The notes: generated from the letters alone by a model not told the origin. A stretch of DNA of 64,000 nucleotides from Oscillospiraceae bacterium (GCA_030625685.1 DAOUQJ010000004.1:7028-71027), one strand, 5' to 3'; numbered from the stretch's first letter, positions 33,755 through 60,787 are shown. Numbers and translations: made by a program.

Positions 33755-33769
33755 TAAGGAGAATTAATC

Positions 33770-37371: not shown

Positions 37372-37390
37372 AAACCGTTCTATTATATGA

Positions 37391-37402
37391 CAACTGTACA
37401 TA
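37391..37402. repeat. Right junction (attR) core CAACTGTACATA
   Basis: Identical to 29670-29681. Confidence 0.8.
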
Positions 37403-37548
37403 AAGACTTATCAGAACGTCTGCCTTCATTTAACCAGCCTTTGTACATGCAAGCCAAGCGTGTATTAGAGCAAAACAAAGCAGAACGCCATATTAGAGGC
37501 GGAATTGCCACTCGCAATAAGTATAAAAGTAATTGTGTTGAATCATAG
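37401..37548 (+). CDS. spoIIID: spoIIID 3' segment (about 48 codons plus stop)
   Basis: Not in the ORF track because it has no start codon. In frame with the 5' segment it reads (STVH)KDLSERLPSFNQPLYMQAKRVLEQNKAERHIRGGIATRNKYK. Compare B. subtilis STVHKDLTERLPEINPDLANEVKEILDYHKSIRGHLGGKATKLKYK. Confidence 0.8.
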
Positions 37549-43446: not shown

Positions 43447-43484
43447 AAACAAACCCGACAGAGTACTTCTGTCGGGTTTGTTTT
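43447..43484. terminator. Bidirectional terminator between asnA and dpaB
   Basis: Stem aaacccgacag/ctgtcgggttt with flanking A and T runs. Confidence 0.7.
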
Positions 43485-44070
43485 ATAAACTGGGTGCAAG
43501 CAAAATGGGCTGAAGTTGCTCACCTTCCAATGCTTTATCAATGGTTTCAGATATTTGCTCCATATCTGCCACTGTTGAGCGTGGTTTATCCATTGGATTA
43601 TCCTGCCGAAATGGCACAAAATAATAGTGTTTTCTACTGAGAAGTTCTCCAATATTTTTTGCAGCAACTCCCAACCCATCATTGGTAGAAATAGCAACTA
43701 CTACAGGTCTCTCATTTCTCAAATGAGATTTGACAGCCATTGTGACTGGAGTATCCGCAATCCCCATTGCCAATTTGGCAAGTGTGTTTCCTGTGCAAGG
43801 TGCTACAACTAGCACATCCAATAATTTCCCAGGTCCAATTGGCTCTGCCTTTACGATACTGTCTATTATCTTTTGATTCTTTGTGATATAGGATAGTTCT
43901 TTACGTAAGTTTTCTGCTGTTCCAAATCGAGTGTCTGTACTTCCTGTCTCAGAAGACAAAATTGGAATAATCGTACGATACTCCTCGGCAAGGTCTGATA
44001 GTGTTTTCATTACTTCTTCGTGTGTACAAAATGAGCCGCACATGGCTACACCGACACTGATATCTTTCAA
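43483..44070 (-). CDS. dpaB: Dipicolinate synthase subunit B (flavoprotein)
   Basis: GVAMCGSFCT...APCTGNTLAKLA flavoprotein pattern, immediately downstream of the dpaA 3' segment. Confidence 0.85.
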   Translation of the reverse strand: MKDISVGVAMCGSFCTHEEVMKTLSDLAEEYRTIIPILSSETGSTDTRFGTAENLRKELSYITKNQKIIDSIVKAEPIGPGKLLDVLVVAPCTGNTLAKLAMGIADTPVTMAVKSHLRNERPVVVAISTNDGLGVAAKNIGELLSRKHYYFVPFRQDNPMDKPRSTVADMEQISETIDKALEGEQLQPILLAPSL

Positions 44071-44076: not shown

Positions 44077-44553
44077 TTACACCCCCAATTCGTGCAAAAT
44101 GTTATAAATGGTGTCTTTGATTGCCTTAGCCGCTGTTTTGGGCGCTGTTTTCCCCGGAAGTCCTGGCAGTCTTTGTGCATTGAGCCCCAATCGTGCGGCT
44201 GCATCCATATCAACCCCGCCTGGGTCAGATGCCAAATCAATGATAAATGCATCCATCTGCACTCGTTCGAGATGCACTTCATCAAGAATAAGCGCAGGCA
44301 CTGTATTGATGATGAGCTCATACCCACCCATCCAATACAGTAGTTGTCTACTGTCTTCCACACCATATCCATATGCTTCTGCCCATGCCCAATCTTCACA
44401 CTTTCGAGAAGCTACCGTTACTCTTGCACCTAAGTTTTGAAGACGATGCGCCGTGAGTTTCCCCACTCTACCATAGCCAATCACTAGTGCTTTAGTGCCA
44501 TGCAAGGTAGAAGGCATATTTCGCATGGCAACCTGTATAGCACCTTCTGCAGT
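44077..44553 (-). CDS. dpaA: dpaA (spoVFA) 3' segment (about 158 codons, Rossmann domain)
   Basis: The reading frame is open up to the junction: ...PT-AEGAIQVAMRNMPSTLHGTKALVIGYGRVGKLTAHRLQNLGARV. Compare B. subtilis DpaA IPTVEGTIMLAIQHTDYTIHGSQVAVLGLGRTGMTIA. There is no start codon or SD at its 5' end. Confidence 0.8.
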   Translation of the reverse strand, partial: TAEGAIQVAMRNMPSTLHGTKALVIGYGRVGKLTAHRLQNLGARVTVASRKCEDWAWAEAYGYGVEDSRQLLYWMGGYELIINTVPALILDEVHLERVQMDAFIIDLASDPGGVDMDAAARLGLNAQRLPGLPGKTAPKTAAKAIKDTIYNILHELGV

Positions 44554-44558
44554 AGGTA
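44552..44558. repeat. dpaA junction core GTAGGTA (partner GTCGGTA at 60789-60795)
   Basis: The two copies are offset by exactly 16,237 bp, and the reading frames of the two gene halves coincide at this offset. Confidence 0.65.
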
Positions 44559-44682
44559 GGGGGTTGTCAATAGTGCAATATAGGTTTGCATTTTACCTTA
44601 TATAAATCTTTAAAATATATGTTTAAAATTCAAACTGCTAATTCTCTTAAAATCTTATCCTATAAACAAAGCTTTTATAAAA

Positions 44683-44941: not shown

Positions 44942-45919
44942 ATGTTGTCAAAACTGAAATTATTATTATTGGAAAATTCTGAATTAGATTTTGTAATGGA
45001 AAGAATAAATGAAAATGACAAGCTAAAATTATTAGCCTGGTATTCAAAAAGTATTACTCACAATAAAAATATAGATATAGTTGAAATCCTAAAAATATTT
45101 TTATGGTGCTATACAGAAGGCAGAAGAATTGAAGAAAGAGAAAATCCCGAAATGTTTGGAAGGTGTTTTGAAGAAAAATCCAATGAATTCCAACTTTCTA
45201 AAAACGATTTAGCGAATTTGTTTTTTTCCCATTATTCACTTTACAATGATGATACGAATTTTGAAATCAATAACGAGAACAATCAAAGTGAAAATGTTCG
45301 TGGCAAGTTCATTGTTTTTGAAGGATTAGACGGTTCAGGTAAAAGTACTCAAATTGCTAAATTAGTTAGTAAGCTTCGAGCTATAGGCAAACATGTTCAT
45401 GAAACAGCTGAACCCACAAACTCTGGTACTGGAGGGCTAATTAGAGATACTTTGAGTAATAATTATCAACGTGATCCATACGAATTAGCTTCACTATTTT
45501 TAGCTGATAGAATTTCACATAATGTAAATCCTATGTATGGAATTAATAAGTACTTAGATGAAGGCATAAATGTTATTTGTGATAGATACTACTATTCCTC
45601 CTTTGCATATCAAGGTATTTCTGCAGATATTGATTATGTGATGGATATAAACTTAACTTGCAAAAAAATCACTAAACCTGATTTATGTATATTCTTAGAT
45701 TTAGATGTTGACGATTGTATTGAGAGAGTACACAAAGAGCGCGAGCATTATGAAATATTTGAAACAGATGCTAAAATTATGAGTAAAATCAGAAAACAAT
45801 TTCTAGACGTCTTTAAAAAATTAAATGAAACAGAAAATATATTTATTGTTGATTCTAATAGAGCTGTTAGCTCTGTCTCTGAGGAGATTTTTTCTCAGGT
45901 ACTGAAATTATTTTACTAA
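44942..45919 (+). CDS. Thymidylate-kinase-like protein with an unrecognised ~120-aa N-terminal extension
   Basis: FIVFEGLDGSGKSTQ P-loop, TAEPTNSGTGGLIRD, LFLADRISH and CDRYYYSSFAYQG are Tmk family motifs. The strong SD is AACAGGAGG. Confidence 0.7.
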   Translation: MLSKLKLLLLENSELDFVMERINENDKLKLLAWYSKSITHNKNIDIVEILKIFLWCYTEGRRIEERENPEMFGRCFEEKSNEFQLSKNDLANLFFSHYSLYNDDTNFEINNENNQSENVRGKFIVFEGLDGSGKSTQIAKLVSKLRAIGKHVHETAEPTNSGTGGLIRDTLSNNYQRDPYELASLFLADRISHNVNPMYGINKYLDEGINVICDRYYYSSFAYQGISADIDYVMDINLTCKKITKPDLCIFLDLDVDDCIERVHKEREHYEIFETDAKIMSKIRKQFLDVFKKLNETENIFIVDSNRAVSSVSEEIFSQVLKLFY

Positions 45920-45939: not shown

Positions 45940-46590
45940 TTGAAAAGCTCGAAAGATTTAAAAACTGTTGAGTATGTTAAATTTTTTCTCAACTCATTCT
46001 TGATGATTATTGGCTGGGTGTGTACAACATATGGTGTAATTTTGCAATATTTTGATAAATCTTATCAGGCTTTAAGCATTATTGTTATTTTTATCATAAT
46101 TAGTTCTCTTATTTATTTCCAATTTAAACATCTTAAAAATATAAATGTTAATAAATCTGAACAATTTTCACAAGAAGAAGTAAACAAATACCTTTTAGAC
46201 TGGATTTCTACTCATGAAAGAACCGTTATATTTACTAGAGATTTTAGTTGGGCAAAGTACAATTTTGAATTATTTGAATGTTTAGTAAATAAATCAAAAA
46301 GAAGAGAGTTAGTAATTTGTCTATCCCAAAAAAATGAGGCAACTAATGAATTAGAAAAATTAGGAGCCGAAGTTTTTGAACACAATATTCCAGAGTCCAA
46401 TTTAAAATCAAGATTTATAATAAATGGATATGGAACAAATTCCCCGCGGGTTAATGTTGGTTCTAAAAAAACAAATGCTCATTTTGTAAATGAAATTTAT
46501 GATGTTAATTCTTCCTCAAATGCTTGTCATTCATTTGTAGAATTATTTGAATTAGCAAAGCAAAAAAACTTAGCCATAAATAATACATAA
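45940..46590 (+). CDS. 2-TM membrane protein with an uncharacterised cytoplasmic domain
   Basis: Two hydrophobic helices (FLNSFLMIIGWVCTTYGVIL, LSIIVIFIIISSLIYF). It starts 20 nt after the tmk-like gene behind AAGGAG and ends at a strong terminator. Confidence 0.5.
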   Translation: MKSSKDLKTVEYVKFFLNSFLMIIGWVCTTYGVILQYFDKSYQALSIIVIFIIISSLIYFQFKHLKNINVNKSEQFSQEEVNKYLLDWISTHERTVIFTRDFSWAKYNFELFECLVNKSKRRELVICLSQKNEATNELEKLGAEVFEHNIPESNLKSRFIINGYGTNSPRVNVGSKKTNAHFVNEIYDVNSSSNACHSFVELFELAKQKNLAINNT

Positions 46591-46778: not shown

Positions 46779-48377
46779 TCAGGAATCTTCTAAAATTTTA
46801 CTTTCTGTTATAAAAAATTTATACTCCCAATTAGCTCTACTAATACGAAAATGAATATCAAATATGTAGGGAAATGCATGAAAGTAAATTTGAACACTTC
46901 GATTAAATATAACTATTTTATCAATTATACTCTGATATAGTTGTTCGGATCTTATGCTATGATTAAAAATATTGTTAATTGTATTAAGAATATTTTCAAA
47001 CCGTTCCTTTTGCTGTTTTTGCATTGACTCTTGAATTTCTAGTTCATGAATATCTTTAAATAAAATATTTAATCTTTGATCAAGTTCTGTTTTTAAAATA
47101 TTCAATTCTTCTCTTGTTATCTTTTCATCTATCAATGCACTTATAGCATTAGATTTTTTGTTTTTTAATACATCAACTTTTCTTTTCAGTATATTAATTC
47201 TTCTATTGTAATTGATATATTTTAAACTAGTAATTTCTTTTAAGATTTCTTTTTTGGTTTCTATAGCATTATCACATAATAAATCTATTGCTTCATTTAT
47301 ACATAATATGAGTATATCTTCTCGAATCCTAGCATTATTACAACCCACAAATTCATTATTGTCGTTTAAATGCTGTTTACCATTCTTCCTTTTATTCCCG
47401 CATACCCAAGAATGATTATAACCTTCTTTGCTCTTTGTCATAGAAGAAAGAAACTTGTGTCCACATTCACCACAAAATACTTTTCCTGAACACCAATATT
47501 TATTTGAAAACTTCGATTTATCTTTTTGAGGAGTTTGTCGTGATTTAAGAATAACTTGAGCCTTATTCCAACGTTCTCTATCAATAATCGCTTCGTGATT
47601 ATTCTCTATGTAAATCTTATCATCTTTATCTTTATTTAATTCTTTGATATGCGATAAAAAGTCCTTTGTAATATACTTTTTATGTAGAATATCTCCTACA
47701 TATTTTTCGTTTTTTAGTATCTTTAAAACACTTTCTTCAGACCACAAATCAGCATATACTGGTTTAATCCCTTTATTATTTAATTCTTTCGCTATTACAC
47801 TTGAACCTTTTTGTTCCTCTACATATTTATAATAAATTTGTTTTACAATTTCAGCTTGGCTTTCATTAATTGATAGTTTTCCGTCTACTAAATTATATCC
47901 TAAAATTGAGTTGTTTCCAAATACAACCCCCTGTTCCATCCGTCTCTTTTGACCCCATTTGACACGTTCAGAAGTTTTTCTGGATTCTTCCTGAGCAACA
48001 GAAGCCATAATAGTGAGTCGAAACTCGCCTTCGTTATCAAGAGTATTGATGTTATCATTGATAAAAAAAACGCCAACTCCAATTTCTTTCAATTTTCTCG
48101 TTTGAGTCAAAGTATCCACCGTATTTCTTGAAAAACGTGATACTTCTTTTGTGATAATTAAATCAATCTCTCTATGATTTGCTAAAAATATCATTTTATT
48201 AAATTGCACTCGATTCTTAATAGATGTGCCTGAAATTCCTTCATCAGCAAAGATTGCAACTAACTCCCAGTCATCGTGTTCTTCTATATATGACTTAAAA
48301 TACTTTTGTTGGTTTTCTAAACTGTTGACTTGGTCTTCTTTGTCAGTAGATACTCTACAATAAACTGCTACCTTCAT
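46779..48377 (-). CDS. Large serine recombinase (paralog A)
   Basis: MKVAVYCRVSTDKEDQ, EVSRFSRNT, AQEESRKTSERVKWG, and zinc ribbon CSGKVFCGECGHKF...WVCGN. About two-thirds identical by eye to 50705-52333. Confidence 0.9.
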   Translation of the reverse strand: MKVAVYCRVSTDKEDQVNSLENQQKYFKSYIEEHDDWELVAIFADEGISGTSIKNRVQFNKMIFLANHREIDLIITKEVSRFSRNTVDTLTQTRKLKEIGVGVFFINDNINTLDNEGEFRLTIMASVAQEESRKTSERVKWGQKRRMEQGVVFGNNSILGYNLVDGKLSINESQAEIVKQIYYKYVEEQKGSSVIAKELNNKGIKPVYADLWSEESVLKILKNEKYVGDILHKKYITKDFLSHIKELNKDKDDKIYIENNHEAIIDRERWNKAQVILKSRQTPQKDKSKFSNKYWCSGKVFCGECGHKFLSSMTKSKEGYNHSWVCGNKRKNGKQHLNDNNEFVGCNNARIREDILILCINEAIDLLCDNAIETKKEILKEITSLKYINYNRRINILKRKVDVLKNKKSNAISALIDEKITREELNILKTELDQRLNILFKDIHELEIQESMQKQQKERFENILNTINNIFNHSIRSEQLYQSIIDKIVIFNRSVQIYFHAFPYIFDIHFRISRANWEYKFFITESKILEDS

Positions 48378-48418
48378 TTAGCTTATCATCCTTTTTGTAT
48401 TACTTCATAATAATATTA

Positions 48419-48565
48419 TTACTCATTAAGTTCTACTAACTTTTTTAATTCCTCATTTGTTATTAGCTTTTTTTCATACAATGTGTAGTATATACCAACT
48501 TTAAGACGTTTCTTAGTAGCTGAATAATTTTGAAGATTATATTTGGAGCAATCATTTAACAACAT
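48419..48565 (-). CDS. Conserved 48-aa ORF upstream of recombinase A
   Basis: Below the ORF-track cutoff. MLLNDCSKYNLQNYSATKKRLKVGIYYTLYEKKLITNEELKKLVELNE, with SD GAGGTG. Ungapped, 23 of 48 residues are identical to the ORF at 50531-50680. Confidence 0.55.
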   Translation of the reverse strand: MLLNDCSKYNLQNYSATKKRLKVGIYYTLYEKKLITNEELKKLVELNE

Positions 48566-49029
48566 TATATAACACCTCAGCACTCTTTGCACTTTAAATA
48601 ATATGGCTATTTCTTATACTCATAAATAACTATATGGAATAGCTTATTTAACTGTTCATATTTATAAAACTTACTATTAATATAATTGATTAACTGTATG
48701 TTCAACGAAACTCTGATATTACAGTGACGCACATTAAGTATTTTGTGAAGTACAAAACGCTCCGCTCAATGTTGAAAAAAATCACTAGAAGGATTATGCC
48801 TTTTGTTGTTGTCGTATTTAAACATGCGTTTTTTATTCTTCGAGCACAGATTAAACTTGTTCCTTTACAAAGACTGCAATTTTTTTAAGATGTCCTTTTT
48901 ATTATCAATGATTAAATTTTTACTCTAGCAAGTCATCTAAATTTACTATTATTAATTAAAAAAGCATCAGCCGTTAATGGTTGATGCTCTCATACAATAA
49001 ATGTAAAGAAATGAATATGAAATTCGGCT

Positions 49030-49150
49030 AAAAATGCTGATGTAGATTTCCATTGGTTAGATGATAAGGGAATATGGAACAACAGCAACAGCGATCCTGC
49101 CGAGTTGTATAACAGTGCTGGGGAATTAATCGATAGATTAGAGGATTAAG
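49030..49150 (+). pseudogene. Startless C-terminal gene remnant (about 40 codons)
   Basis: The frame reads NSAKNADVDFHWLDDKGIWNNSNSDPAELYNSAGELIDRLED*. It is preceded by in-frame stops and has no ATG. A strong terminator follows at 49181-49225. Confidence 0.35.
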
Positions 49151-49180
49151 AACAACTAACCTCTAAAATTTAATTTTAAT

Positions 49181-49225
49181 AAAAAACCGTTCATTCTTAT
49201 TTTAGTAAGAATGAACGGTTTTTTG
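49181..49225 (+). terminator. Intrinsic terminator
   Basis: Perfect 15-bp stem aaccgttcattctta/taagaatgaacggtt followed by TTTTT. Confidence 0.7.
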
Positions 49226-49333
49226 CTGTTGTTGAAAATCAATAAGACAGCAAGTTATTTAGAAAAAATGGGGGTTGACCAAAATTCTATGGTATTGCAA
49301 TCTATTTTTTGTAGTCTTACACATTTAAATTTC

Positions 49334-50017
49334 TTAATCATACGTATTTGGGGAGTAATTTAACTCATTGAGAACATCTAACATATATTTATCTTTAAAG
49401 TATCCATCTGTATAGAAACATACAAATTGAATAACTTTAATTAAGTAAGCAGTAATAATTCCAACAAAGATTATTGAAAAGACTGATTTTGAAACTATGT
49501 TATTCCCTGCGTAAATCACACTGGCTATGAGCGCACCAAGAGGTACACCAATAAGTATATCATAGATTTTATTCCCGATTTTTTCATATTTATCTTTATG
49601 CAAATTTAAAGCAGTTTCACATTCTTTTTTTAATTGAAATATCATTTGTTCCCCCATAATTCCATGTTTTTCAAGAATACTTTCTATATCAGAAACATAT
49701 TTCTGATAATTCGCATTTTGTTTTTCAAGTTCTTCTTTTCGGGCAGATTCGCAATATAAATTCTTTTCCCTTTGAATCTCACCAAAAATTGCAGCAACAA
49801 TCATTGAAGTTATTGGAAGTAAAATCCATATATTTGTTAAATGTTTAATTATTAGTATAATCATTGTAATAATAGAAATTAGTATTGTTGCTATGATAAC
49901 CCAAAGTGAACGTTTAAAAAGACGTACCATATCTGGGAAACTTCGATTGAAATTTAACTTACTCATCGGGTTCTGCTCGTAGATTTCTCGTCGAACATAA
50001 TAATATTTTTTTGTCAT
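49334..50017 (-). CDS. 4-TM membrane protein with a central coiled-coil-like segment, hypothetical
   Basis: 227 aa. It has two N-terminal and two C-terminal hydrophobic helices flanking a charged EELEKQNANYQKY... segment. I recognise no family. Confidence 0.5.
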   Translation of the reverse strand: MTKKYYYVRREIYEQNPMSKLNFNRSFPDMVRLFKRSLWVIIATILISIITMIILIIKHLTNIWILLPITSMIVAAIFGEIQREKNLYCESARKEELEKQNANYQKYVSDIESILEKHGIMGEQMIFQLKKECETALNLHKDKYEKIGNKIYDILIGVPLGALIASVIYAGNNIVSKSVFSIIFVGIITAYLIKVIQFVCFYTDGYFKDKYMLDVLNELNYSPNTYD

Positions 50018-50422
50018 TTATCTTATTCCTTATTCCTTTATGATATAATCAATATTGTTTAATATTACGTTATATTTATCATCATTTTAATCAGATAAAT
50101 GAATATTATCGAAATCTTTTCATTCACGCCATTTATGAAAAAGTTGCGACAATATTTACCTAACTCCATTTTTGTTCTGTTAACTTTTACATGTTACTAC
50201 AATATATTGATTTTTACAACTTTTAAAAATAAAAGGATATGTCTCCACATATTAAACCCATCATCCTAGAGAATGAAATCATACAGCCAATCAATTTCAA
50301 AATTGATTTAACTAAAATGAGGGGTTCACTTTTATCTTTTTGGTTTAAAATCTATATTGATATAAAACTCACTGATCTGGGTATTTTGTTATATCCAATA
50401 TTACTGTCTGCGATTAATTTTT

Positions 50423-50460
50423 AAAAAAGACGTTCAGAAATTGTTCTGAACGTCTTTTTT
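50423..50460 (+). terminator. Intrinsic terminator
   Basis: Stem aagacgttcagaa/ttctgaacgtctt followed by TTTT. Confidence 0.65.
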
Positions 50461-50530
50461 AGATGATATAAATATATTAATTCAATAACCGCATAAAATA
50501 TTCAAAGTCTAATCTAAAAGGTGGGATAGT

Positions 50531-50680
50531 ATGAAGACAATGGACAACAACAAATACAGTTTAGACAATTACTCAACTGCTCGTAAATGCTTTAAACGAG
50601 GTGTTTACTTTACTTTATTTGAAAAGAATAAAATATCCTACGTTCAGTTAAAAAAACTAATCGAAAAAAACCGCTTATAA
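50531..50680 (+). CDS. Conserved 49-aa ORF upstream of recombinase B
   Basis: MKTMDNNKYSLDNYSTARKCFKRGVYFTLFEKNKISYVQLKKLIEKNRL, with SD AAAGGTGGG. It is a homolog of the ORF at 48419-48565. Confidence 0.55.
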   Translation: MKTMDNNKYSLDNYSTARKCFKRGVYFTLFEKNKISYVQLKKLIEKNRL

Positions 50681-50704
50681 TTCATATGGGAGAAAAAGAT
50701 TTTC

Positions 50705-52333
50705 ATGAAAGTAGCAGCCTATTGTCGTGTATCAACAGATAAAGATGATCAATTACATAGTCTAGCCAACCAAATTGAATACTTTACAACATATATCAAT
50801 AACCACAATACTTGGCAGTTGGTGGACATTTTCGCTGACGAAGGTATCACTGGAACTTCTACCAAAAATCGAACCGAGTTTAATCGAATGATTTCTATGG
50901 CACAGAATAAAGAACTTGATTTTATCATTACAAAAGAAGTATCTCGTTTTTCTAGAAACACCATTGACACATTATCATATACGCGTCAGTTAAAAGAGAT
51001 GGGAATAGGGGTTCTATTTATTAATGATAATATCAACACCCTCGACAATGAAGGTGAATTTAGACTCACCATTATGGCATCCGTTGCGCAGGAAGAATCC
51101 AGAAAAATATCTGAACGTGTTAAGTGGGGTCAAAGAAGAAGCATGGAACAAGGTGTGGTGTTCGGTAATAATTCAATATATGGCTATCATTTAGTCAGTG
51201 GAACATTGACCATTGACAAAAAGCAAGCTGAAATTGTAAAAGAAATCTATTTCAAATATGTAGAAGAGAGAAAAGGCTCAAAAACAATTGCAAATGAATT
51301 AACACGCAATGGGATAAAACCTGTATACGCGAATTCTTGGTCAGCAGAAACCATTATGAAAATTTTAAAAAACGAAAAATATGCTGGCGATGTTTTACAT
51401 AGAAAATATGTGACGACAAATCATCTAAACCATACTGCGACACTAAATACCAATAAAGATGATGTCATTTTCATCAAAGACAATCATCCTGCGATTATTG
51501 ATAAAAAAACATGGAACAAAGCACAATCTATCATAAAATCAAGAAATTTCAAACTAGAAAATCAAAGAAACAGAGACGAGTATTGGTGCTCAGGTAAGCT
51601 GTTTTGTGGGGACTGTGGCGCTAAATTTTTTTCCTGTGCTACGAAAGGAAAAGAAGGCTATCATCACTCTTGGGTATGCTCTAACAAGAAAAAACACGGC
51701 AAGCAAAAGTTGAATCACAATCTCGAATGCGTTGGGTGCAATAATTCTAGAATTCGTGATGATATCCTCGTGTTATGCTTGAGCGCGGCAATAAAATTAT
51801 ATTGTAGCCATTCGAGCAAGACAAAAAAAGAGATAGTAAACGAGTTAGAGCATCTTCAATTTGTAAATTATAAAAAACAAAAGAATCAATTAAAAAAAAC
51901 CATAGAAACGTTACATGACAACAAAACCAAAGCTTATATCTCATTTCTCAATAATGAACTAGCGAAAGATGAAATCGACTATATTAACAAGGAAATTGAC
52001 AAAAAAATCAATATACAACATGAAGAACTAGAGAAAATTGAAAAACTCGATTCTCTGCAGAACATGCAAAAAGAAAACTTCAAAGAAAGAGATGCTATCC
52101 TTCAAGATATTTATAATAACACGTCAAATGAAATGCTAGAAAAATTATATGATTGTATCGTCGAAAAAATAGTTATCTTCAAAAGAAATGTCCAAATTCA
52201 CTTCTATGGCTTACCTTTTGTCTTTGACATTCATTTTCGTGTCAGTAGAACAAATTCAAAATATAACGTATACATAACAGAACAACAAATCTTAGAAAAC
52301 ATGAACAATTCTCACAACACGCTTTTCTCATAA
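50705..52333 (+). CDS. Large serine recombinase (paralog B)
   Basis: MKVAAYCRVSTDKDDQ, EVSRFSRNT, AQEESRKISERVKWG, and CSGKLFCGDCGAKF...WVCSN. Confidence 0.9.
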   Translation: MKVAAYCRVSTDKDDQLHSLANQIEYFTTYINNHNTWQLVDIFADEGITGTSTKNRTEFNRMISMAQNKELDFIITKEVSRFSRNTIDTLSYTRQLKEMGIGVLFINDNINTLDNEGEFRLTIMASVAQEESRKISERVKWGQRRSMEQGVVFGNNSIYGYHLVSGTLTIDKKQAEIVKEIYFKYVEERKGSKTIANELTRNGIKPVYANSWSAETIMKILKNEKYAGDVLHRKYVTTNHLNHTATLNTNKDDVIFIKDNHPAIIDKKTWNKAQSIIKSRNFKLENQRNRDEYWCSGKLFCGDCGAKFFSCATKGKEGYHHSWVCSNKKKHGKQKLNHNLECVGCNNSRIRDDILVLCLSAAIKLYCSHSSKTKKEIVNELEHLQFVNYKKQKNQLKKTIETLHDNKTKAYISFLNNELAKDEIDYINKEIDKKINIQHEELEKIEKLDSLQNMQKENFKERDAILQDIYNNTSNEMLEKLYDCIVEKIVIFKRNVQIHFYGLPFVFDIHFRVSRTNSKYNVYITEQQILENMNNSHNTLFS

Positions 52334-52598
52334 TTTAACACGTATTGAATAGCGTGTTACTCCTTTATTTTTACTATAAACATGCAGTATTTGAATCTAT
52401 ACCCAATTGCAAGCATCTATTACTCTCATTTCACTCTGTTGTATGATAACTATATAAGATCATATATGCTTTAAAAGTCCTTTTCATAAGGACTTTTTAT
52501 TTTTATAAAGTAGCTAACAAAAAACATTCTGTATTTACGAAAATATTTTTCTATAAAATAGAAAATTACGAAAATGAATTTTTTACGTGAAAACAATA

Positions 52599-52627
52599 TT
52601 GACAATACCATAGTATTGATATACTAT
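52599..52627 (+). promoter_or_regulatory. Candidate sigma-A promoter of the c-di-GMP riboswitch leader
   Basis: TTGACA (52599-52604), a 17-nt spacer, TACTAT (52622-52627). Confidence 0.45.
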
Positions 52628-52654
52628 ACACGTATACAATTAAATATAATTATC

Positions 52655-52757
52655 GAAAATCCGATAACAGCAAACTTGCCGAAAGGCAAGGACGCAAAGC
52701 CAAGGGTCTAATGCTGAGCAGCAATCTGCAAGGCTATGACAGCCGGTTGCCGAAGGT
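52655..52757 (+). promoter_or_regulatory. c-di-GMP-I (GEMM-I) riboswitch
   Basis: AACAGCAAACTTGCCGAAAGGCAAGGACGCAAAGCCAAGGGTCTAA...GACAGCCGGTTGCCGAAGG matches Vc2-type blocks: GCAAAC, a GAAA tetraloop, GGACGCAAAGCC, and GGTTaCCGAtGG. Confidence 0.85.
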
Positions 52758-52777
52758 ATTCGTCTTTTTGGAGAGTT

Positions 52778-52806
52778 CCGTTCAGTCAACCTGGACGGTT
52801 TTTTGT
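52778..52806 (+). terminator. Riboswitch expression-platform terminator
   Basis: Stem ccgttcag/ctggacgg followed by TTTTTTGTTGTTT. Confidence 0.6.
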
Positions 52807-52907
52807 TGTTTAAATAATCAATAAAAAACGCAAAAGCTCTTACTGAAAACCGCACGAAAAATTGTTACCTACACACAGAAATGAAATAAATTGAAGAAGG
52901 GATAACC

Positions 52908-53669
52908 ATGAAAAATAATAAACTAAATAGATGTTCCTCGTTCTTTCTTGCTCTTATCATAAGTTTGTCACTTTTTTCTTTTAATGCATCTGCTGTGAAG
53001 AATACCCCAGATACTCAAGAAGCTCCTGTAGTGACTGATAGTATTCCAGACACGCAAGAATCTCCCGAAGTGACCGACACTACTCCAGATACCCAAGAAT
53101 CTCTCGAAGTGACCGACACTACTCCAGACGCGCAAGAATCTCCCCAGGTGACCGACACTTCTCCAGATACTCAGGATTCTTCTGAAGCTGCTAATACTAA
53201 CACTGAAGAAGCTACTCTCATAAAATTAGAACCTGAACTAACTGCTGAAGAAAAAGCTGCAATTGAGTTTACGCAAGAAGTGTTAAGACTTGTGAATGAA
53301 AAGCGAGTAGAAGCAGGTATACTAGAACTGAATTCAATGGATGTTTTAACTGAACTAGCTCAAATAAGAGCGATTGAATCTTCTCAAGCTTTTAGTCACA
53401 CAAGACCTGACGGCACCAAATATTATACTATATTTAGTGAATACTTCCTTAGATATCGATGTGTGGGCGAAAATCTGGCTTATGGCTATAATACACCTGA
53501 ATCAGTCGTCAGAGCTTGGATGAAATCAAAATCACATAAAGCCAATATCTTAAATGCTAATTATAAATACATTGGCATTGGTTATACAAAAAAATCTGGT
53601 AAAGTGTATTGCTCACAACTATTTTATACCCCAACAATGATGCTCGCACAACCACAACCAATGATTTAA
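52908..53669 (+). CDS. Secreted CAP/SCP (YkwD-like) domain protein with an acidic tandem-repeat linker
   Basis: Signal peptide, PDTQE(S/A)P(E/V)VTD repeats, and a C-terminal CAP pattern (VNEKR...L, AFSHTRPDG, GENLAYGY, WMKSKSHKANIL). Confidence 0.8.
   Translation: MKNNKLNRCSSFFLALIISLSLFSFNASAVKNTPDTQEAPVVTDSIPDTQESPEVTDTTPDTQESLEVTDTTPDAQESPQVTDTSPDTQDSSEAANTNTEEATLIKLEPELTAEEKAAIEFTQEVLRLVNEKRVEAGILELNSMDVLTELAQIRAIESSQAFSHTRPDGTKYYTIFSEYFLRYRCVGENLAYGYNTPESVVRAWMKSKSHKANILNANYKYIGIGYTKKSGKVYCSQLFYTPTMMLAQPQPMI
53007..53201 (+). repeat. Five tandem 39-bp (13-aa) coding repeats, the last one degenerate
   Basis: Units begin CCAGA(T/C)AC at 53007, 53046, 53085, 53124 and 53163. Confidence 0.85.
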
Positions 53670-53823
53670 ACGCAAAAGCTCCCATAACTCAATAAAGAGT
53701 TATGGGAGCTTTTTACTGGCATCTATCATAGCTTAGAATACATCTACCAGTATAAAACAAGGTGGCAACTTAAGTTGCCACCTTGTTTTTACATTTTTAA
53801 ATGCTTATCAGTTTTCAATGATT

Positions 53824-56800
53824 CTAGGAAAGAACTTCTCCTGGATTTTCTGAGGAGTTTGCATTAGACCATTCCGCTTCTAATGCTGCCCAATCTCTAA
53901 CTGGTAGCAATTCAGTCCATGTTTCATGTACATCGCCAGACTCATACATAAAGTTATGTGAGTTTGTTGCTTCTTGAATATCAGGATAATACCATTTGTT
54001 TTCATCTGCATTATCAGGCCATGTAATCATACCATCAAGCATATGATCTTTTTCAGGAGAACGACCGAGCAAATTATTAATAATACGGATTGCTTCAGCT
54101 CTTGTAATATTGTTATCCGGTTTGAATGTGCCATCTGGATAACCTGCGATCAATCCATTTTCAGCAATATGGTTGATATAATTTACTGCCCAATGCCCGT
54201 TGATATCTGAGAACCAGTCATTTGATCCTGTATAGCTTCCTCCATAGAACCTTGAAGTCATAGTCGCAAGCTCAGCGCGCGTAATCGGACTGTTCGGATA
54301 GAAATTTCCATTAGGATGGCCTTCTACTATGCTTCCTTTGGTAAGTGTTGATATCGCATTGTTATACCAAAGTATAGATTCTACATCCGCATATTTATTG
54401 CTTTGGCTCCAATATGAATCTCTTGCGGAATCGTTCAGCATTCTGAAGAATATTGTAGCAACCTCTGCTCTTGTAATTGGAGCTTCTGGATATACAAATC
54501 CATCATCAAAACCAATAATGTATGCATAATGATCTGTAATCATATCTTCTTCACCCAAAACTCCACCACTTGATGTACTAGATCTTTTTGCTTTAATTCT
54601 GAAATCTCCAGGAATAACTGTTACATTATAGTTGAAATTTTCTGTGAAATCTGCTGTGATTACACCATCATATGTACCAACTGATTCATCACTATTGGCT
54701 CGGATGTATGTTATGGTTCCAAGATCATCAGGAGAAACCAAGGTGCCTGAGGTAATGCTTCCTGTAAATTCAGGATCATCTCTTCTGACTGTTTTTCTAC
54801 CGTCATCCACAGTGATTGTGATATCAACTTGTGTAATTGTCAGTGTGCCTTCTTCTTTGGTGATGTTATAAGCACTTGTTACATCATCTGTGCCACGCAT
54901 AATCGCAATATCTGTAATTGTATTTGCTGCTGTGCCCGCGTCTGTAATCGTTCCCGTTACCATCGCAGTTAAAACGTCACCTTGAACTAGGGTATCACTA
55001 TAGGTATAGCTACTTTCTCCAGTTGTGAGCGCTGTTCCATCATACATTTTACTTGCATCTGGGGAAGATACTGTCACGGAATTGCCACCTTCTGTTACCC
55101 TCAATGTACCCAAAACTTTTGCAATGATGTAGTTTTCAGCAAGTGTTACTTCATTCAGTGTGTAAGTAAATGTATTGTCACTGCTTCCAACAGATGTTTG
55201 GCTACCAGTCACATTGAAAGTTGCCCCTTCACCTTGAACAAAACCATCTCCACTTTCGGCAACTGTATGATTGAGCAATGCTGTTCCATCATATACCTTA
55301 GTAGCATCTCCTGAAGTTAAAGTAACCGACCGCGCTGTCACTTGAATGGTGACATCATCCGTAAATAAGTCTTCATTTCCTTCTTGCAATGCTTTCACAC
55401 TTACTGTCACGATACCTTCAGATACATTTGTGACACTAGGGGCTGTGGAAGACCACTCTCCAGTACCAACTTTATAGTAAATCGTGTATCCTGTCGGTGC
55501 GTTTGCCATGACAGCGTGTGCATTTCCGTCATAAAGCCAAGCCCCACCGTATGCTTCTAACTCTTCTCCAGTTGAATTGTCTTTAATCTCAAAATCACCT
55601 GGCATAATGGTTACATCATAATTTGAATTTGCAGTATAGTTTGCAGACAACACTTCCATATATACTCCAACACTTTCTTCAGATGTATTGGTACGATAGT
55701 AAGAAATTGTTCCCAAATCATTGCCGTCTACTAGTGCTCCTGATGTAATGGAGCCAGTAAAGACTGGGTCTGCTTCTCCAAAGAATTTTTCTGCATCGTT
55801 GACTGTGATTGTAACCATACTTGCGGTCAAATTCAGTTGACCGTTTTCAATTGTGATATCATATTTCGTCGTCACATCATAATCATCTGACGTATCGCCC
55901 TCTGTGCCATCATCATTCATAATTGCATATCCAGCATCAATTGCATTCGTTACAGGACTGTCAGCAACATTTGTAATACTACCACTTGAGCTGGCTACCA
56001 AGTAATCGCCATCATTCAAACTTCCTGATGTAACTGTAACGCTGTCGAAGCTATGAGCATTGCCATCATATTCCCAAGTTTGGCTGCCAGCAGTAATTGT
56101 AATGGGTGTGAGCGCGAAATAGGAATAGTAGATATCGATAGCACCATAATATTCACTTGTCAAATCAACAGTAACTGTTCCGTCTTCTGATACGCTTACC
56201 GTTCCTTCACCACTAGGTATCGCCTGGTCAACAACAGTATTTCCGACAGATGTCTCAGAAATAACTTCCTCTCCATCAATCTCTACGACAACATTCAGAT
56301 AGTCATATCCTTCAATGGATACTGGATTTTTTTCGTATGTTCCAACTTGCAATCCATTAAAACTAACAGGTTCTGTTTGTGTTAAGTCAATGATAGGATC
56401 AGCGGGTGGATATTCATGAAACACATTTAGAGAACCTAACACTTGAAAATATGTATTTTCTAATTCAAATCCTCCTGGAAAATTAAGAGCAATTAAAAGT
56501 TGAGCTGGTATTTCAGATACTTCAATGGCTCCAATCATCCAATAATATGCGCCACTGTCATTTTTTCCATATGGCGCTTCGTCTATCACTATTGCACCAC
56601 TGCCATCCTTAACTACTAAGTTTGTATTATCTGGATAATTTCTCACATCGGGGAGTTCATCCCAATAATCAACAGTTATACCATCAACTTCTAAATGGTA
56701 TTTTGCATCACTCAAACTGTGGTTCATGGTTGTAAGTGCTACATACACGTAATTTCCATCTTGCCACACATATCGCGCATTGGTATGGTCATTAGTTGAA

Positions 56801-56982
56801 TCAGCTATCAAATTGTATACACCTAAATCAGCAGTATACCCATTTCCTGAATCAAAGGCAGGTGTTGCAGCGGAAGAAGTTGTAGAAACCACCAATGCCA
56901 ATAATGCAACAACGATTACAGATGCAATGAGCCATTTTCTCAATCTCTGCGGATGTGCATTTATTTTACTCGTGTCATTCAT
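53824..56982 (-). CDS. Large SLH-anchored surface protein with MBG-type (YDGxA) repeat domains
   Basis: Signal anchor, repeated ...YDG(N/T)A... and DP(V/E)FTGSITSG(A/T)LV..DDLGTI(S/T)Y modules, and three C-terminal SLH repeats (ITRAEVATIFFRML etc.). I place the start at ATG 56982 behind AAAGGGGA. Confidence 0.8.
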   Translation of the reverse strand: MNDTSKINAHPQRLRKWLIASVIVVALLALVVSTTSSAATPAFDSGNGYTADLGVYNLIADSTNDHTNARYVWQDGNYVYVALTTMNHSLSDAKYHLEVDGITVDYWDELPDVRNYPDNTNLVVKDGSGAIVIDEAPYGKNDSGAYYWMIGAIEVSEIPAQLLIALNFPGGFELENTYFQVLGSLNVFHEYPPADPIIDLTQTEPVSFNGLQVGTYEKNPVSIEGYDYLNVVVEIDGEEVISETSVGNTVVDQAIPSGEGTVSVSEDGTVTVDLTSEYYGAIDIYYSYFALTPITITAGSQTWEYDGNAHSFDSVTVTSGSLNDGDYLVASSSGSITNVADSPVTNAIDAGYAIMNDDGTEGDTSDDYDVTTKYDITIENGQLNLTASMVTITVNDAEKFFGEADPVFTGSITSGALVDGNDLGTISYYRTNTSEESVGVYMEVLSANYTANSNYDVTIMPGDFEIKDNSTGEELEAYGGAWLYDGNAHAVMANAPTGYTIYYKVGTGEWSSTAPSVTNVSEGIVTVSVKALQEGNEDLFTDDVTIQVTARSVTLTSGDATKVYDGTALLNHTVAESGDGFVQGEGATFNVTGSQTSVGSSDNTFTYTLNEVTLAENYIIAKVLGTLRVTEGGNSVTVSSPDASKMYDGTALTTGESSYTYSDTLVQGDVLTAMVTGTITDAGTAANTITDIAIMRGTDDVTSAYNITKEEGTLTITQVDITITVDDGRKTVRRDDPEFTGSITSGTLVSPDDLGTITYIRANSDESVGTYDGVITADFTENFNYNVTVIPGDFRIKAKRSSTSSGGVLGEEDMITDHYAYIIGFDDGFVYPEAPITRAEVATIFFRMLNDSARDSYWSQSNKYADVESILWYNNAISTLTKGSIVEGHPNGNFYPNSPITRAELATMTSRFYGGSYTGSNDWFSDINGHWAVNYINHIAENGLIAGYPDGTFKPDNNITRAEAIRIINNLLGRSPEKDHMLDGMITWPDNADENKWYYPDIQEATNSHNFMYESGDVHETWTELLPVRDWAALEAEWSNANSSENPGEVLS

Positions 56983-57455
56983 AATACTATCCCCTTTCAT
57001 CTACTTTGATGTACGAAACATCATTTTCTTTACAACGTTCCTGTCAATGCGCTCGTCTTGATTTTCTGCTGATAAAATGATCTATCCACAACCCTTACCC
57101 TAACCATTGTACTGTTTTTGTATATCTTAATTAATTGTTTTAGACTTCCATAAAATTCATTACATTTTTGTTTATTTTGCATATTTATAACTAGATTTTT
57201 TTATATTTTTTGTCTATTTTATTTTGTTATTATACCATGCATGAATTATTTGTCAAATTATTTATCAAAAATTGGATAAATTAATTTATGTATATATGTA
57301 AGACCTAAAAAAAACTACTTTAGACTCAATAGAAAAGATTGAACCCTCTGTTTTTTCTTAAATTTTAAATACCAAGACGCTTTTTTTCTACCTTTCTCGC
57401 TTCATCTATGTTAATTTACGATAAAATCAAACGCAATACTCTGTTATATACTTCC

Positions 57456-57493
57456 AAAAACCCCCTATAGCCAATAAAGGTTATAGGGGGTTT
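57456..57493. terminator. Bidirectional terminator hairpin
   Basis: Stem ccccctata/tataggggg flanked by AAAAA and TTT. Confidence 0.55.
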
Positions 57494-57631
57494 AATATTA
57501 TTTATTCATCATATCACAAATTGAGAAGCTCAATTGTTAGTATAGTTCATCGTCACTTTCAATTTGAAAACTGTTTCCATAGAGTAAAGCGTTACGATTC
57601 ATTCTGTAAAGTAACAAGCCTGAACTTCTTT

Positions 57632-60310
57632 TTATTTTGACAACACTTTTGCAATGAATACTGAAACAACATTGGGATCAAACTGTTTTCCAGCACAACT
57701 TTTAAGCTCAACAATCGCTTCTTCTTGCGTCATCGGTGCTCGATAAGGTCTTTCCGTTGTCATAACATCAAAAGCATCCGCAACTGAAATAATCCTAGAC
57801 TCTAATGGAATCTCGTCCCCTTTCAGTCCTTTGGGATATCCTCTGCCATCATAACGCTCATGGTGTGAAAGAACAACATCTGAAATGTCTTTATATTCCA
57901 CCGTATTTTCCAAAATACGTGCGCTCTTGGCAGGATGTGATTTCATAATTTCCCATTCATCATCTGCCAATGAATTAGGCTTATTTAGAATGCTCTCATT
58001 GATGCCAATTTTTCCGATATCATGAAACAGCCCAGCCACACGAATTCGATTGATTGCCACTTCATCCAAATTCATTTTTAGGGCTATCGTTTCACATAAA
58101 AGGCTTACGCGTGCCGAGTGCTTCTGTTCTCTTTCACTCTTTTCAAACAGTGTCATCATAATTGCCTTGATTGTTTTGCTTTTCATACTTCTACTATTGT
58201 AGAATTTTCTTCGATACATGAAGACGCCAGCTTCCTTCATCAAGGTATCCAAAGAATCGCCATGATTCTTTTGCATAGCATATCCAAAGGAAATGGATAA
58301 GCCAATGGATTTTCGTCTATCTTCAGTGTTAACAACACGTTCTCTATTGATAGAATCTAAATTTTGAATGAGTCTTTGCACTTCTTTTTCGTTGGTGCCT
58401 GTCATTAAGATTGCAAATTCATCGCCACCGATTCTTGCAACGACCTCACCTTCTCGAAGAAAAGAATTAATTCTTTGCGCAGTCTCTTTGAGCATTTCAT
58501 CGCCGACGGTATGTCCGAATGAATCATTGATGAGTTTGAGCCCATTCAAATCACCAAGGATAATCGCCAATGGGAAATGCTCCGATCTATTTTTTTTGTC
58601 AAACTCCAATTCCAAATATCGCCGATTGTTGATCGCCGTTAGATGGTCATGATACGCCAATTTCTTGATTTCTTTTAAGGCATCTTCGCGATCTGTAACA
58701 TCAAAAATTATGGAACACAGCGCACTCTGATTGTCATACTCAATTTGAGAAGAAAACACATCCACCATTTTAATTTCACCACTTTTTAACCGATGTGGAA
58801 ATGTAAAATGTTGTTGTTCTTTTACCAGTGCCTTCGTCAATGACTCTCGAACGGTATCTTCGTCAAGCATATTTAATTTTGCAATATTCATACTGCGTAG
58901 TTCTTGGATAGAATATCCATAAAACTCAATTGCAGCAGGATTTGCATCCAAAATCGTACCTGATATTGGATCCACGACTAAAATATTTGCATGTGTTCCA
59001 TTGATCATCGCATTAAAATGTGACAACTGTTTGTCTTTTTCGTCTGACACACGCTTTTTCTCTGTGATATCAAGGCCTATTGCATAAAATGTAAAATAAT
59101 TGCCTTGCTGATCAAACACAGCCGTACCGCGCCATTCAATCCATTTAACATGCCCAGCAACTTGAATGCTGTGTGTATACGTCGCATATGGTTTGTCTAT
59201 TGTTAGGTTCAAATATCGGTTGCTTACTTCGGCTCTTTCTTCCGATGGAATAAAGTCTTGAATGCTTCTACCCAAAAGCTGTTGAGGTGTTTTTCCAAAA
59301 TAATCGCAACAAGCTTCATTGACAAATGTCATTTTTCCATCTGTTTGAAACTCACAAACCAATGCAGACAGCGCATTGAAAATAATCTTATATTTCTGTT
59401 CTTCAACCTGAATTCGTTCAATCAAATCTTTTTGCTTATGAACGCTCCAACCACTTTGCAGTAATATCATCACCTGATTGGCATCAAAATCGCTATACTC
59501 ATGCGAATTATTGGCCAAATCAACTACCGCCACAACTTGCTCATTAACGATAATTGGCAGGGACATATGATATTTATATTGATGATAGGGTTTTGTAAAA
59601 TAACTGGGTTTTTGTGAACTGTTAAAAATAATGTAGTTTTTTTCCACAACAACCTTTTGCCACACGTGTCTCATGCTATCTTGTAGCGTGCTTTGATCGT
59701 TACTATTCTGTATTTGCAATGCAACTTCGTTACCATTGGATGTGATGCGAAATTCCTCTAATGTCTCATCATATAAACATAGATTGACGAATTCACTACT
59801 CGTAAGTTCGAGTGTTTTTTGTTGAATGTACATTAAAAATTCATTTTGATCGTCAAACCGTACGCTGTAAATATCCAACAGTATCTCCTGTCTTTTCACA
59901 ACGCTTTCGTTTTCTAGCATCTTTGTTTCAATGTTTATTTTTTCAGTCATATTTTCAAAAGTGCTTACAAAATAACCTTTTTCTGTTGAAAATGAATTTA
60001 CCTTATAATAGCTGTTATTGTGTGTTTGAAATATTTCAAACACCATTTTTCTGCCGTCCATCGCCACACGAGAAAACTTTAAAAGTCTCCAATTGAGCTC
60101 TTCTGATTTCATCTTAGGAAGGATTTCTGTAACTCGTTTTCCGATGATATCCGAAGCGCGAAGTTGCATCTCTTCTTCAAACGCTGGATTGACTTCTAGA
60201 ATTATGTAGTCATAAGGAACCCCTTGCTCATCTACTAACAGCTGGTTGAGTGAATACGCAAGCGGCAAATTCATTATGATATCATCTGATATTCTACGCT
60301 TCATTTTCAA
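57632..60310 (-). CDS. Multidomain c-di-GMP signalling protein (PAS/GAF sensors, GGDEF, HD-GYP)
   Basis: RIGGDEFAIL (an intact GGDEF), HDIGK and HHERYDGRGYPKGL (HD-GYP), and N-terminal PAS-like repeats. Confidence 0.85.
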   Translation of the reverse strand: MKMKRRISDDIIMNLPLAYSLNQLLVDEQGVPYDYIILEVNPAFEEEMQLRASDIIGKRVTEILPKMKSEELNWRLLKFSRVAMDGRKMVFEIFQTHNNSYYKVNSFSTEKGYFVSTFENMTEKINIETKMLENESVVKRQEILLDIYSVRFDDQNEFLMYIQQKTLELTSSEFVNLCLYDETLEEFRITSNGNEVALQIQNSNDQSTLQDSMRHVWQKVVVEKNYIIFNSSQKPSYFTKPYHQYKYHMSLPIIVNEQVVAVVDLANNSHEYSDFDANQVMILLQSGWSVHKQKDLIERIQVEEQKYKIIFNALSALVCEFQTDGKMTFVNEACCDYFGKTPQQLLGRSIQDFIPSEERAEVSNRYLNLTIDKPYATYTHSIQVAGHVKWIEWRGTAVFDQQGNYFTFYAIGLDITEKKRVSDEKDKQLSHFNAMINGTHANILVVDPISGTILDANPAAIEFYGYSIQELRSMNIAKLNMLDEDTVRESLTKALVKEQQHFTFPHRLKSGEIKMVDVFSSQIEYDNQSALCSIIFDVTDREDALKEIKKLAYHDHLTAINNRRYLELEFDKKNRSEHFPLAIILGDLNGLKLINDSFGHTVGDEMLKETAQRINSFLREGEVVARIGGDEFAILMTGTNEKEVQRLIQNLDSINRERVVNTEDRRKSIGLSISFGYAMQKNHGDSLDTLMKEAGVFMYRRKFYNSRSMKSKTIKAIMMTLFEKSEREQKHSARVSLLCETIALKMNLDEVAINRIRVAGLFHDIGKIGINESILNKPNSLADDEWEIMKSHPAKSARILENTVEYKDISDVVLSHHERYDGRGYPKGLKGDEIPLESRIISVADAFDVMTTERPYRAPMTQEEAIVELKSCAGKQFDPNVVSVFIAKVLSK

Positions 60311-60787
60311 AACTCCTTATACGACATACGGGTAAATGCCAATGAACCTCTTTTCACTCTCTTTGTGTTGTAACTGTTTCCCAAACTATTTTAATTCAAA
60401 CCTTAAAATAATTGCACACAAACAAAGCACATTTGTAAGATTGAGAACTTTCCTTAGAATTTTTCAGAAATGTACCCATTATATCTTAAAATGTAGGATC
60501 AGAAATATTATAGCATATAAACAACATAAAACAACATATTTTGGAATATTCATGCAAAAATTATAGCATTTTTTTCAAAATATCATTCTATACTACCATA
60601 TTTTCTCTTTCTAAAAAATCTGATATCTCACTGTTAATCAGAAGAATCGCCTTTTTCTTTTCAATTCCCTTCACAAATTTAAAAGGGCTTGGTTTAGATT
60701 TTTGAAAAGCCTAATGATTTGATGTATCTTCATCCTTCTATCGAAATTGACTTTTTACACACACTTAAATAGACACTTGGATAACAA

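Follow-up and report, generated by a model that had tools for sequence, protein, structure and literature searches.

Why should one insertion in a sporulation gene encode two related large serine recombinases (LSRs), each behind a small open reading frame (ORF)? The question is raised by a 64,000-nucleotide stretch of an Oscillospiraceae bacterium (GCA_030625685.1, DAOUQJ010000004.1:7028-71027), here called the window, in which an insert splits dpaA, the gene for dipicolinate synthase subunit A. An earlier note, made from the sequence alone, had described the two divergent LSR modules within this insert and offered three explanations: a heteromeric pair like CcrA/CcrB, two fused or nested elements, or an additional excision or inversion event with cryptic attachment (att) sites near 46.7 and 52.35 kb. 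We report that the small ORFs belong to a syntenic small-protein family of the whole LSR clade, and that two paralogous small-protein/LSR pairs are stacked at one site; both observations are new. On balance, the insert is probably a mosaic built up at one attachment site rather than a single element with a two-enzyme machine, and fused or nested elements are the best supported of the three explanations.

Elements such as skin, SPbeta, skinCd, gin and yin are familiar examples of intervening DNA that combines an LSR with a small factor. For serine integrases, finding the cofactor that reverses the reaction is an acknowledged bottleneck. The known recombination directionality factors (RDFs) share no common motif and have no fixed place relative to the integrase gene (PMC12286644). 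Proven small RDFs are 42-72 amino acids long (GirX, 42; CD1234, 72), and an intervening element with several recombinases has been described (PMC5595907, PMC5025042).

Results

The insert separates the N-terminal ~128 amino acids of DpaA, encoded at 60793-61177 (minus strand; NCBIfam profile positions 5-136), from the C-terminal 149 or more, encoded at 44077-44556 (minus strand; NF006162/TIGR02853 profile positions 142-290). An intact dpaB (43483-44070) follows the 3' fragment, whose frame runs on to the junction as PTAEGAIQVAMRN. The gene is cut at codon ..NAVPT|AEG... J1 (44533-44578) is of the attL type and consists of the dpaA half-site CTGTATAGCACCTTCTGCAGTA, a GG centre (44555-56) and the element arm TAGGGGGTTGTCAATAGTGCAA; J2 (60770-60815) is of the attR type, with the element arm TAGACACTTGGATAACAAGGTC, a GG centre (60792-93) and the dpaA half-site TACCGCATTGGCAATTTGGCAT. 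GT.GGTA is common to both, and with GG as the crossover dinucleotide (44555/6, 60792/3) the insert measures 16,237 bp. Joining J1 to J2 in silico gives AATGCGGTACCTACTGCAGAAGG and a 287-residue DpaA that matches NF006162 in one stretch at 258.7 bits, against a cut-off of 261, with residues 8-284 covering profile positions 6-290 of 297. Judged by its sequence, the insert resembles a skin-like element: precise removal would restore the dpaA frame, and it encodes its own recombinases.

Both recombinase genes were confirmed where the earlier note had placed them. LSR-A (46779-48377, minus strand) encodes 532 amino acids and LSR-B (50705-52333, plus strand) 542, and the genes lie away from the dpaA junctions, ending 2.2 and 8.5 kb from the nearer one, as had been described. 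The two proteins are identical at exactly 41 of their first 60 residues. The earlier description of them as two-thirds identical is accurate for this N-terminus and does not extend to the whole length, over which identity is 58% (309/533, with 79% positives by BLASTP). Each contains Resolvase (PF00239; E values of 1e-33 and 9e-35), Recombinase (PF07508) and Zn_ribbon_recom (PF13408) domains. Within the YCRVST catalytic motif, R8 and S10 are invariant across LSR orthologues, and the zinc-ribbon cysteines C296, C302, C305, C326 and C346 are conserved in the ortholog alignment; residues ~370-470 are rich in E, K and L and poorly conserved. Because both proteins are colinear with their nearest relatives and retain every invariant catalytic and zinc-ribbon residue, we consider both intact, and the suggestion that one of them might be a decaying pseudogene can be set aside.

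Among known proteins, LSR-A and LSR-B are closest to one another (58% identity, versus 48-54% to the next group), and nucleotide homology between the two modules is confined to the small ORF and LSR genes. The nearest solved structure to the clade is 3g13, the clade is related to Clostridioides difficile transposon recombinases, and more than 5,000 protein clusters match the pair at E<=1e-100. Ccr models are the best NCBIfam matches of the LSRs, with scores of only 60-127 bits against cut-offs of 700-900; the CcrB equivalog model gives 127 bits (cut-off 900) and the CcrA model 80 bits (cut-off 700), so neither LSR is placed in these families. A phage origin was considered and found unsupported: curated phage genomes hold no close member, and the 41-44% matches are partial and fall on unannotated human-faecal fragments.

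The small ORFs are arranged as originally described, with every coordinate and count upheld. sA (48419-48565, minus strand) encodes 48 amino acids from its ATG and ends 41 nt upstream of LSR-A; a GTG-extended form of 57 amino acids is also open. sB (50531-50680, plus strand) encodes 49 amino acids and ends 24 nt upstream of LSR-B. Shine-Dalgarno-like sequences, GAGGTG and GGTGG, precede sA and sB, respectively, and the two proteins share 23 of 48 residues without gaps. No model in Pfam, NCBIfam or PHROGs matches either protein, in agreement with the proposal of an undescribed family; SHOCT (PF09851) likewise matches neither, while one relative reaches an E value of 0.036 at 14.2 bits, against a cut-off of 27. 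Direct searches with sA and sB returned the window's own proteins and nothing else, both from a word-indexed set of 5.8 billion and from an exhaustive HMMER search of 1.84 billion representatives. Only through synteny and a wider profile did the family come into view.

We surveyed 80 loci from GTDB species representatives whose LSRs are 40-50% identical to LSR-A. Of these, 67 contain a tblastn match to sA or sB, and in 56 of them the best match is on the strand of the LSR, at most 350 nt upstream of that gene, where about one would be expected by chance; in nearly all 80, an ORF of 40-70 amino acids with the pattern LK.G[IV]Y.EL....LL[ST]..QL..L occupies that place. A hidden Markov model (HMM) was trained on 52 of these upstream ORFs, all taken from other genomes so that the window did not contribute. 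Among the window's 1070 ORFs it picks sA and sB alone (E values of 1e-8 and 1e-9; next best, 1.3). In an independent set from IMG/VR, a profile match stands directly upstream of 18 of 20 clade LSRs versus 0 of 35 more distant ones, and some IMG/VR contigs encode the pair. The ratio of nonsynonymous to synonymous substitution rates (dN/dS) of the small ORF is 0.0-0.3 among close relatives, a range by which the family is judged to be under purifying selection. Small-ORF similarity also tracks LSR similarity, the closest LSRs being paired with the closest small ORFs. The evidence is good that sA and sB are genuine genes and that their family, which has no name, goes with this LSR clade.

Members of the family are ~45-60 amino acids long and, where named in databases, are all called "hypothetical protein" (e.g. 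WP_213543826.1 of Pusillibacter faecalis). The gap between small ORF and LSR is 80-110 nt in many loci, and in elements of 2.6-2.7 kb the small ORF is the sole or nearly the sole other gene. AlphaFold2, given an alignment of database homologues, models sB as a two-helix hairpin with a predicted local distance difference test score (pLDDT) of 82.6; a Foldseek search of the PDB with this hairpin yielded generic helical matches, all with E>1. By analogy with known small factors, a role for sA and sB as directionality factors is plausible.

Two observations on the family stand apart. The boxes GCCATATTATTTAAAGT and GCATAAAATATTCAAAGT, which resemble a -10 element, lie ~40 nt upstream of both small ORFs (48600-48625 and 50485-50500) and are reminiscent of the CATA-type -10 of mother-cell sigma factors, although such a likeness is weak evidence in AT-rich DNA. 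In Pusillibacter faecalis MM59 (locus L262, NZ_AP023421.1 238587-245996), a clade LSR and an upstream 55-residue 'hypothetical protein' adjoin cotJB, and this may be another insertion in a sporulation gene.

Insertion into dpaA is not peculiar to this organism. In 8 of the 80 GTDB loci, dpaA fragments adjoin the LSR, with the same codon cut wherever the junction can be read. Including metagenome contigs, same-site dpaA loci comprise L001, L029, L035, L036, L045, L046, L051, L075 and L083-L086, each with one clade LSR, and the junction position is identical in L001, L029, L035, L046, L051 and L083-86. The contigs L083-L086 carry the four LSRs nearest to ours (P0068-P0071, 48-54% identical). L001 is [Clostridium] viride DSM 6836, where the element cutting dpaA at the same codon is 2.7 kb long and encodes a 47-residue small protein, a rubrerythrin and a single LSR; the attP of this type is a perfect palindrome, CATGCGGTA-GG-TACCGCATG. 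The LSR runs opposite to dpaA, as LSR-B does, in L029, L035, L036, L045 and L046, and is co-directional with dpaA and adjoins the 3' fragment, as LSR-A does, in L051 and L075. No second full-length LSR above 30% identity occurs in the 80 loci; L077 has a partial match. The presence of one clade LSR per element argues against an obligatory heteromer and, in the smallest elements, leaves no plausible accessory gene other than the small ORF. That a single dpaA codon is used recurrently across Clostridia is new here.

As an aside, dpaA is interrupted twice in [C.] viride DSM 6836 (KK211198.1 914441-936036), L083, L084 and L085. In these genes a middle exon of ~110 amino acids lies between two divergent LSR modules, the second of which comprises a 505-residue LSR (25% identical) and an unrelated upstream ORF of 41 amino acids.

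The internal structure of the insert bears on its origin. Its left half (44.56-52.6 kb) has a GC content of ~28% and its right half one of ~39%, which is host-like. At the shift between the two lies an inverted repeat, TATGGTATTGTCAATATTGTTT (52591-52612, minus strand), whose partner, TATGATATAATCAATATTGTTT, is at 50039-50060 (plus strand). The two agree at 19 of 22 positions, a value that none of 300 shufflings of the intergenic DNA on either side attains, and they enclose sB and LSR-B only, defining a mini-element of 2.57 kb. The J1 arm TAGGGGGTTGTCAATAGTG matches the arms of this LSR-B unit at 15 of 19 positions in fixed register from the crossover. Arm scans further identified two tandem arm-like sequences at 49268-49310 (plus strand). 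One, GGGGGTTGACCAAA (49270-83), is a direct copy of the J1 arm; by chance, 0.11 further GGGGGTTGWCMAWA matches would be expected per window. The other, TATGGTATTGCAATCT (49288-49310), resembles the LSR-B arms and is the third-best match in the window to the arm consensus. sA, LSR-A and two further genes, for a kinase-like protein and a membrane protein (orf216), thus lie between two direct copies of the J1 arm.

Counted manually in fixed register, no more than 9 of the 22 positions of the J2 arm agree with the remaining arms. Elsewhere in the clade, attP arms form strong inverted repeats, with 23/27 positions in an element in spoIIID (described below) and perfect pairing over 9-11 bp in L083, L029 and L051. 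Since simple clade elements have such arms, the mismatch between J1 and J2 fits a composite.

The 2-kb spacer between the modules is AT-rich, as the earlier note had it, and is not empty: it holds a 227-residue membrane ORF, a gene remnant, terminators and the att-like repeats. The membrane protein (orf227, 49334-50017, minus strand) is a prediction with no family match and lies between two arm copies. The remnant is the 3' end of a start-less gene (...DFHWLDDKGIWNNSNSDPAELYNSAGELIDRLED*) followed by a strong terminator (49180-49225), and the region 48960-49225 has the look of a truncation scar between the modules.

The inverted repeat also has features of a promoter. Its right copy overlaps a sigma-70-like TTGACA-17-TACTAT facing the adjacent riboswitch (52599-52627), with a perfect TTGACA, and its left copy contains the promoter-like TGATATAAT (50042-50049). 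If the LSR-B unit were circularised, it would bring together TTGACA-15-TGnTATAAT facing sB and LSR-B, reminiscent of the joint promoter of Tn4451.

The cryptic att sites proposed in the earlier note fared unevenly. Att-like sequences do exist, at 49.27-49.31, 50.04 and 52.59-52.61 kb. Local alignments of the junction regions and arm scans against shuffles gave nothing significant at 46.7 or 52.35 kb. A sequence at 46.71 kb that resembles the spoIIID core, ACAACTGTA, was dropped as a chance 9-mer. Independent activity of the internal sites is doubtful because their predicted crossover dinucleotides differ from the outer GG. A metagenome scan with the arm sequence gave more than 120 chance matches, none of them near an LSR or dpaA. 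Exact-protein look-ups of the island genes found the same organism in one other sample only, and no variant that lacks a unit.

Discussion

We favour a composite origin for the 16,237-bp insert. Four units would be stacked in it: that of LSR-A (4.7 kb), a small cassette with orf227, the 2.57-kb LSR-B mini-element, and a segment of 8.2 kb that lacks a recombinase and ends differently. These units may have come separately, by nesting or by accretion at an already occupied dpaA site, with each of the two LSRs bringing its own small protein. In the sporulating mother cell, one of the pairs, possibly either, would recombine J1 with J2, so that the island is excised and dpaA restored. The small protein would act as the dedicated accessory factor of its LSR, most likely as a directionality factor permitting excision between attL and attR, a role modelled on the small factors SprB, GirX and CD1234. 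The internal att-like sites, with centres other than GG, would no longer compete with the outer junctions. In sequence, J1 resembles the LSR-B arms, and J2 neither set.

Several findings weigh against this account. By manual reading, no right-type partner arm stands beside the internal left-type arms, contrary to simple accretion. In the register of J1 and J2 (GA[CT]AA[CT]-N6-centre), the internal centres are TT, GT and possibly AA rather than GG; either these centres have decayed, or they never arose from GG-centred recombination. Since the inverted repeat overlaps promoter-like hexamers, it may be regulatory DNA. The J2 arm bears no relation to the rest and may be recognised by one of the LSRs or by neither. 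The small ORF is apparently co-transcribed with its LSR, given the gaps of 24-41 nt, and directionality factors are normally regulated apart from the integrase (PMC5025042, PMC12286644); constant co-expression of small protein and LSR would oppose integration. Finally, the composite is known from one organism only, in two assemblies.

The two LSR modules could instead have arisen within one element that duplicated and inverted its own small ORF and LSR module, the copies being redundant or sub-functionalised (e.g. for integration versus sporulation excision) and the repeats being copied promoter or operator sequence. The mutual closeness of LSR-A and LSR-B (58% versus 48-54%), the limits of nucleotide homology at the small ORF and LSR genes, the TTGACA and TATAAT-like hexamers in the repeats, and the similar CATA-type -10-like box ~40 nt upstream of both small ORFs all agree with such an event. 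However, the 22-bp repeats are related in fixed register to the arm at the dpaA crossover, as expected of att arms and not of promoters, and the arm copies enclose whole units. An identity of 58% would also make the duplication old, yet no relative retains two copies, and we regard this origin as unlikely. Whatever their origin, two paralogous LSRs within one insert might work as a heteromer like CcrA/CcrB, both being required at the dpaA junctions. The dissimilar J1 and J2 arms (by manual count) could then mean one enzyme per arm, and it is Ccr models that match the LSRs best in NCBIfam. Those matches nevertheless score 60-127 bits where 700-900 are demanded, the LSRs are encoded in divergent, separate units ~2 kb apart and not in an operon, same-site dpaA elements elsewhere run on one clade LSR, and no second full-length LSR above 30% identity accompanies the first in the 80 loci (with L077 partial). 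A heteromer is thus very improbable. The internal att-like sites, for their part, might be active, allowing excision of the 2.57-kb unit or of the 8-kb low-GC half, or inversions, beside excision of the whole 16.2 kb. There are four or five related arms and two intact LSR/small-ORF pairs, and when read by eye in an N4 register J1 and both ends of the LSR-B unit have TA centres. The same register gives TC at J2 and so cannot also serve dpaA restoration, while in the J1/J2 register the internal centres disagree with one another (TT versus GT). With no alternative junction in the two available assemblies, we find such activity quite unlikely.

The function of the small protein is a separate matter. 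It may regulate LSR expression or be a subunit used in both directions, such as a controller of transcription or translation or an oligomerisation module akin to SHOCT, and not a directionality factor. Its invariable place immediately upstream, in apparent co-transcription, would suit such a role, and known RDFs have no such synteny (PMC12286644). One relative shows the weak SHOCT match (E value of 0.036), and the family also occurs on viral-classed contigs, where constant RDF co-expression would block lysogeny. In many loci, however, the gap of 80-110 nt leaves space for a promoter serving the LSR only, small helical RDFs of 42-72 amino acids are the norm in Bacillota, and elements of 2-3 kb offer no other candidate factor. 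We treat a regulator or subunit as a serious but less likely alternative. We are equally tentative about a more general proposal, in which the small ORF would define an extensive family of cognate cofactors, in strict synteny with the LSRs of the entire clade and serving them as directionality factors or obligatory partners. The island would then be two orthogonal pairs stacked at one site, with the internal att sites disabled by changes in the crossover dinucleotide so that only whole-island excision, and with it the repair of dpaA, takes place. If this were true, the small protein could be read off directly upstream of each clade LSR, and many integrase-cofactor pairs would become testable as reversible genome-engineering tools.

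The composite structure that we favour has precedents. In SCCmec-type islands, in which LSRs are involved, several units, some of them recombinase-less, stack at one chromosomal att site, and CcrA and CcrB come from one transcript and work jointly. The dpaA insert is alike in its stacking; here, the LSRs are encoded separately and score far below the Ccr cut-offs. The gin element in gerE of Bacillus cereus ATCC 10987 (GirC with its 42-residue RDF GirX, and GirA/GirB) is also of non-phage type, interrupts a mother-cell sporulation gene, has multiple serine-recombinase genes and depends on a tiny, motif-less accessory protein for excision (PMC5595907); its authors proposed a composite origin for it (PMC5595907). 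It differs in that girA and girB form an operon and are dispensable, their products being 22-26% identical to GirC (PMC5595907). The dpaA insert, unlike gin, has LSRs that are 58% identical, each with a conserved upstream small ORF, and one of its modules has terminal repeats; the target is dpaA and not gerE.

In skinCd of Clostridioides difficile, an LSR (CD1231) and a small element-encoded factor (the 72-residue RDF CD1234) similarly restore a mother-cell sporulation gene (PMC5025042). Here the differences are that CD1234 lies several genes away from CD1231 under its own sigmaE/SpoIIID-dependent promoter, that there is one recombinase, and that the target is sigK (PMC5025042). SprA/SprB of SPbeta and SpoIVCA/Skr of skin in Bacillus subtilis show that an integrase, a small RDF and att sites can form a portable unit that restores a sporulation gene; these elements are prophages or prophage-like, of 48-134 kb, and synteny of RDF and integrase is not strict in them (PMC5499854, PMC6957869). 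Intervening elements have been described both in the dipicolinate synthase operon, as vfbin in spoVFB (dpaB) of Bacillus weihenstephanensis, and in spoIIID, as in Ruminiclostridium cellulolyticum (cited in PMC10747680 and bioRxiv 10.1101/2022.02.25.481979). The gene split here is dpaA (spoVFA). In the literature searched we found no report of a split dpaA. The present data make dpaA a recurrent LSR target across Clostridia and document an island of several units at that site.

Other features of the window

The remaining genes of the low-GC half of the dpaA insert encode a thymidylate-kinase-like protein (44942-45919, plus strand; Pfam Thymidylate_kin, 2.5e-45) and, after it, the 216-residue membrane protein orf216 (45940-46590, plus strand). 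The kinase-like protein has an N-terminal extension of 120 amino acids and matches the PADLOC candidate defence family PDC-M51B (1.5e-20); the two genes may be anti-phage cargo.

The recombinase-less right half (52613-60791), with its host-like GC and unrelated end, begins with a c-di-GMP-I riboswitch (52659-52754; 74.7 bits) that precedes a gene for a secreted CAP-domain protein (52908-53669). It continues with genes for an SLH/MBG surface protein of 1058 amino acids (53824-57000, minus strand) and a PAS-GGDEF-HD protein (57632-60310, minus strand). From 52659 to 60310 it looks like a c-di-GMP-linked surface module carried in the dpaA insert.

A second sporulation gene, spoIIID, is also split within the window, its 5' fragment (29567-29698) and 3' fragment (37390-37548) being separated by a 7.7-kb insert. 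The junctions have a 12-bp common core, CAACTGTACATA, the element ends form the 23/27 inverted repeat, and the joined SpoIIID passes TIGR02844 with 116.1 bits against 111.5. At the end of this insert lies a third LSR, LSR-C (35878-37371), which is 39% identical to LSR-A and has its stop codon ~20 nt from the junction. An ORF of 56 amino acids upstream of LSR-C was considered, by eye, as a distant member of the small-protein family and rejected, since the HMMs lend it no support (E values of 31-52); its match in the wider profile search is circular because the ORF was in the query alignment.

A split dpaA and a split spoIIID lying 7 kb apart suggest a programmed cascade of DNA rearrangements in one mother cell, in which the spoIIID and then the dpaA rearrangement may act in sequence. 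The spoIIID insert also carries, at 30598-34231 and with host-like GC, a complete FMN riboswitch and riboflavin operon (ribD, ribE, ribBA and ribH), and housekeeping genes therefore lie inside an excisable element.

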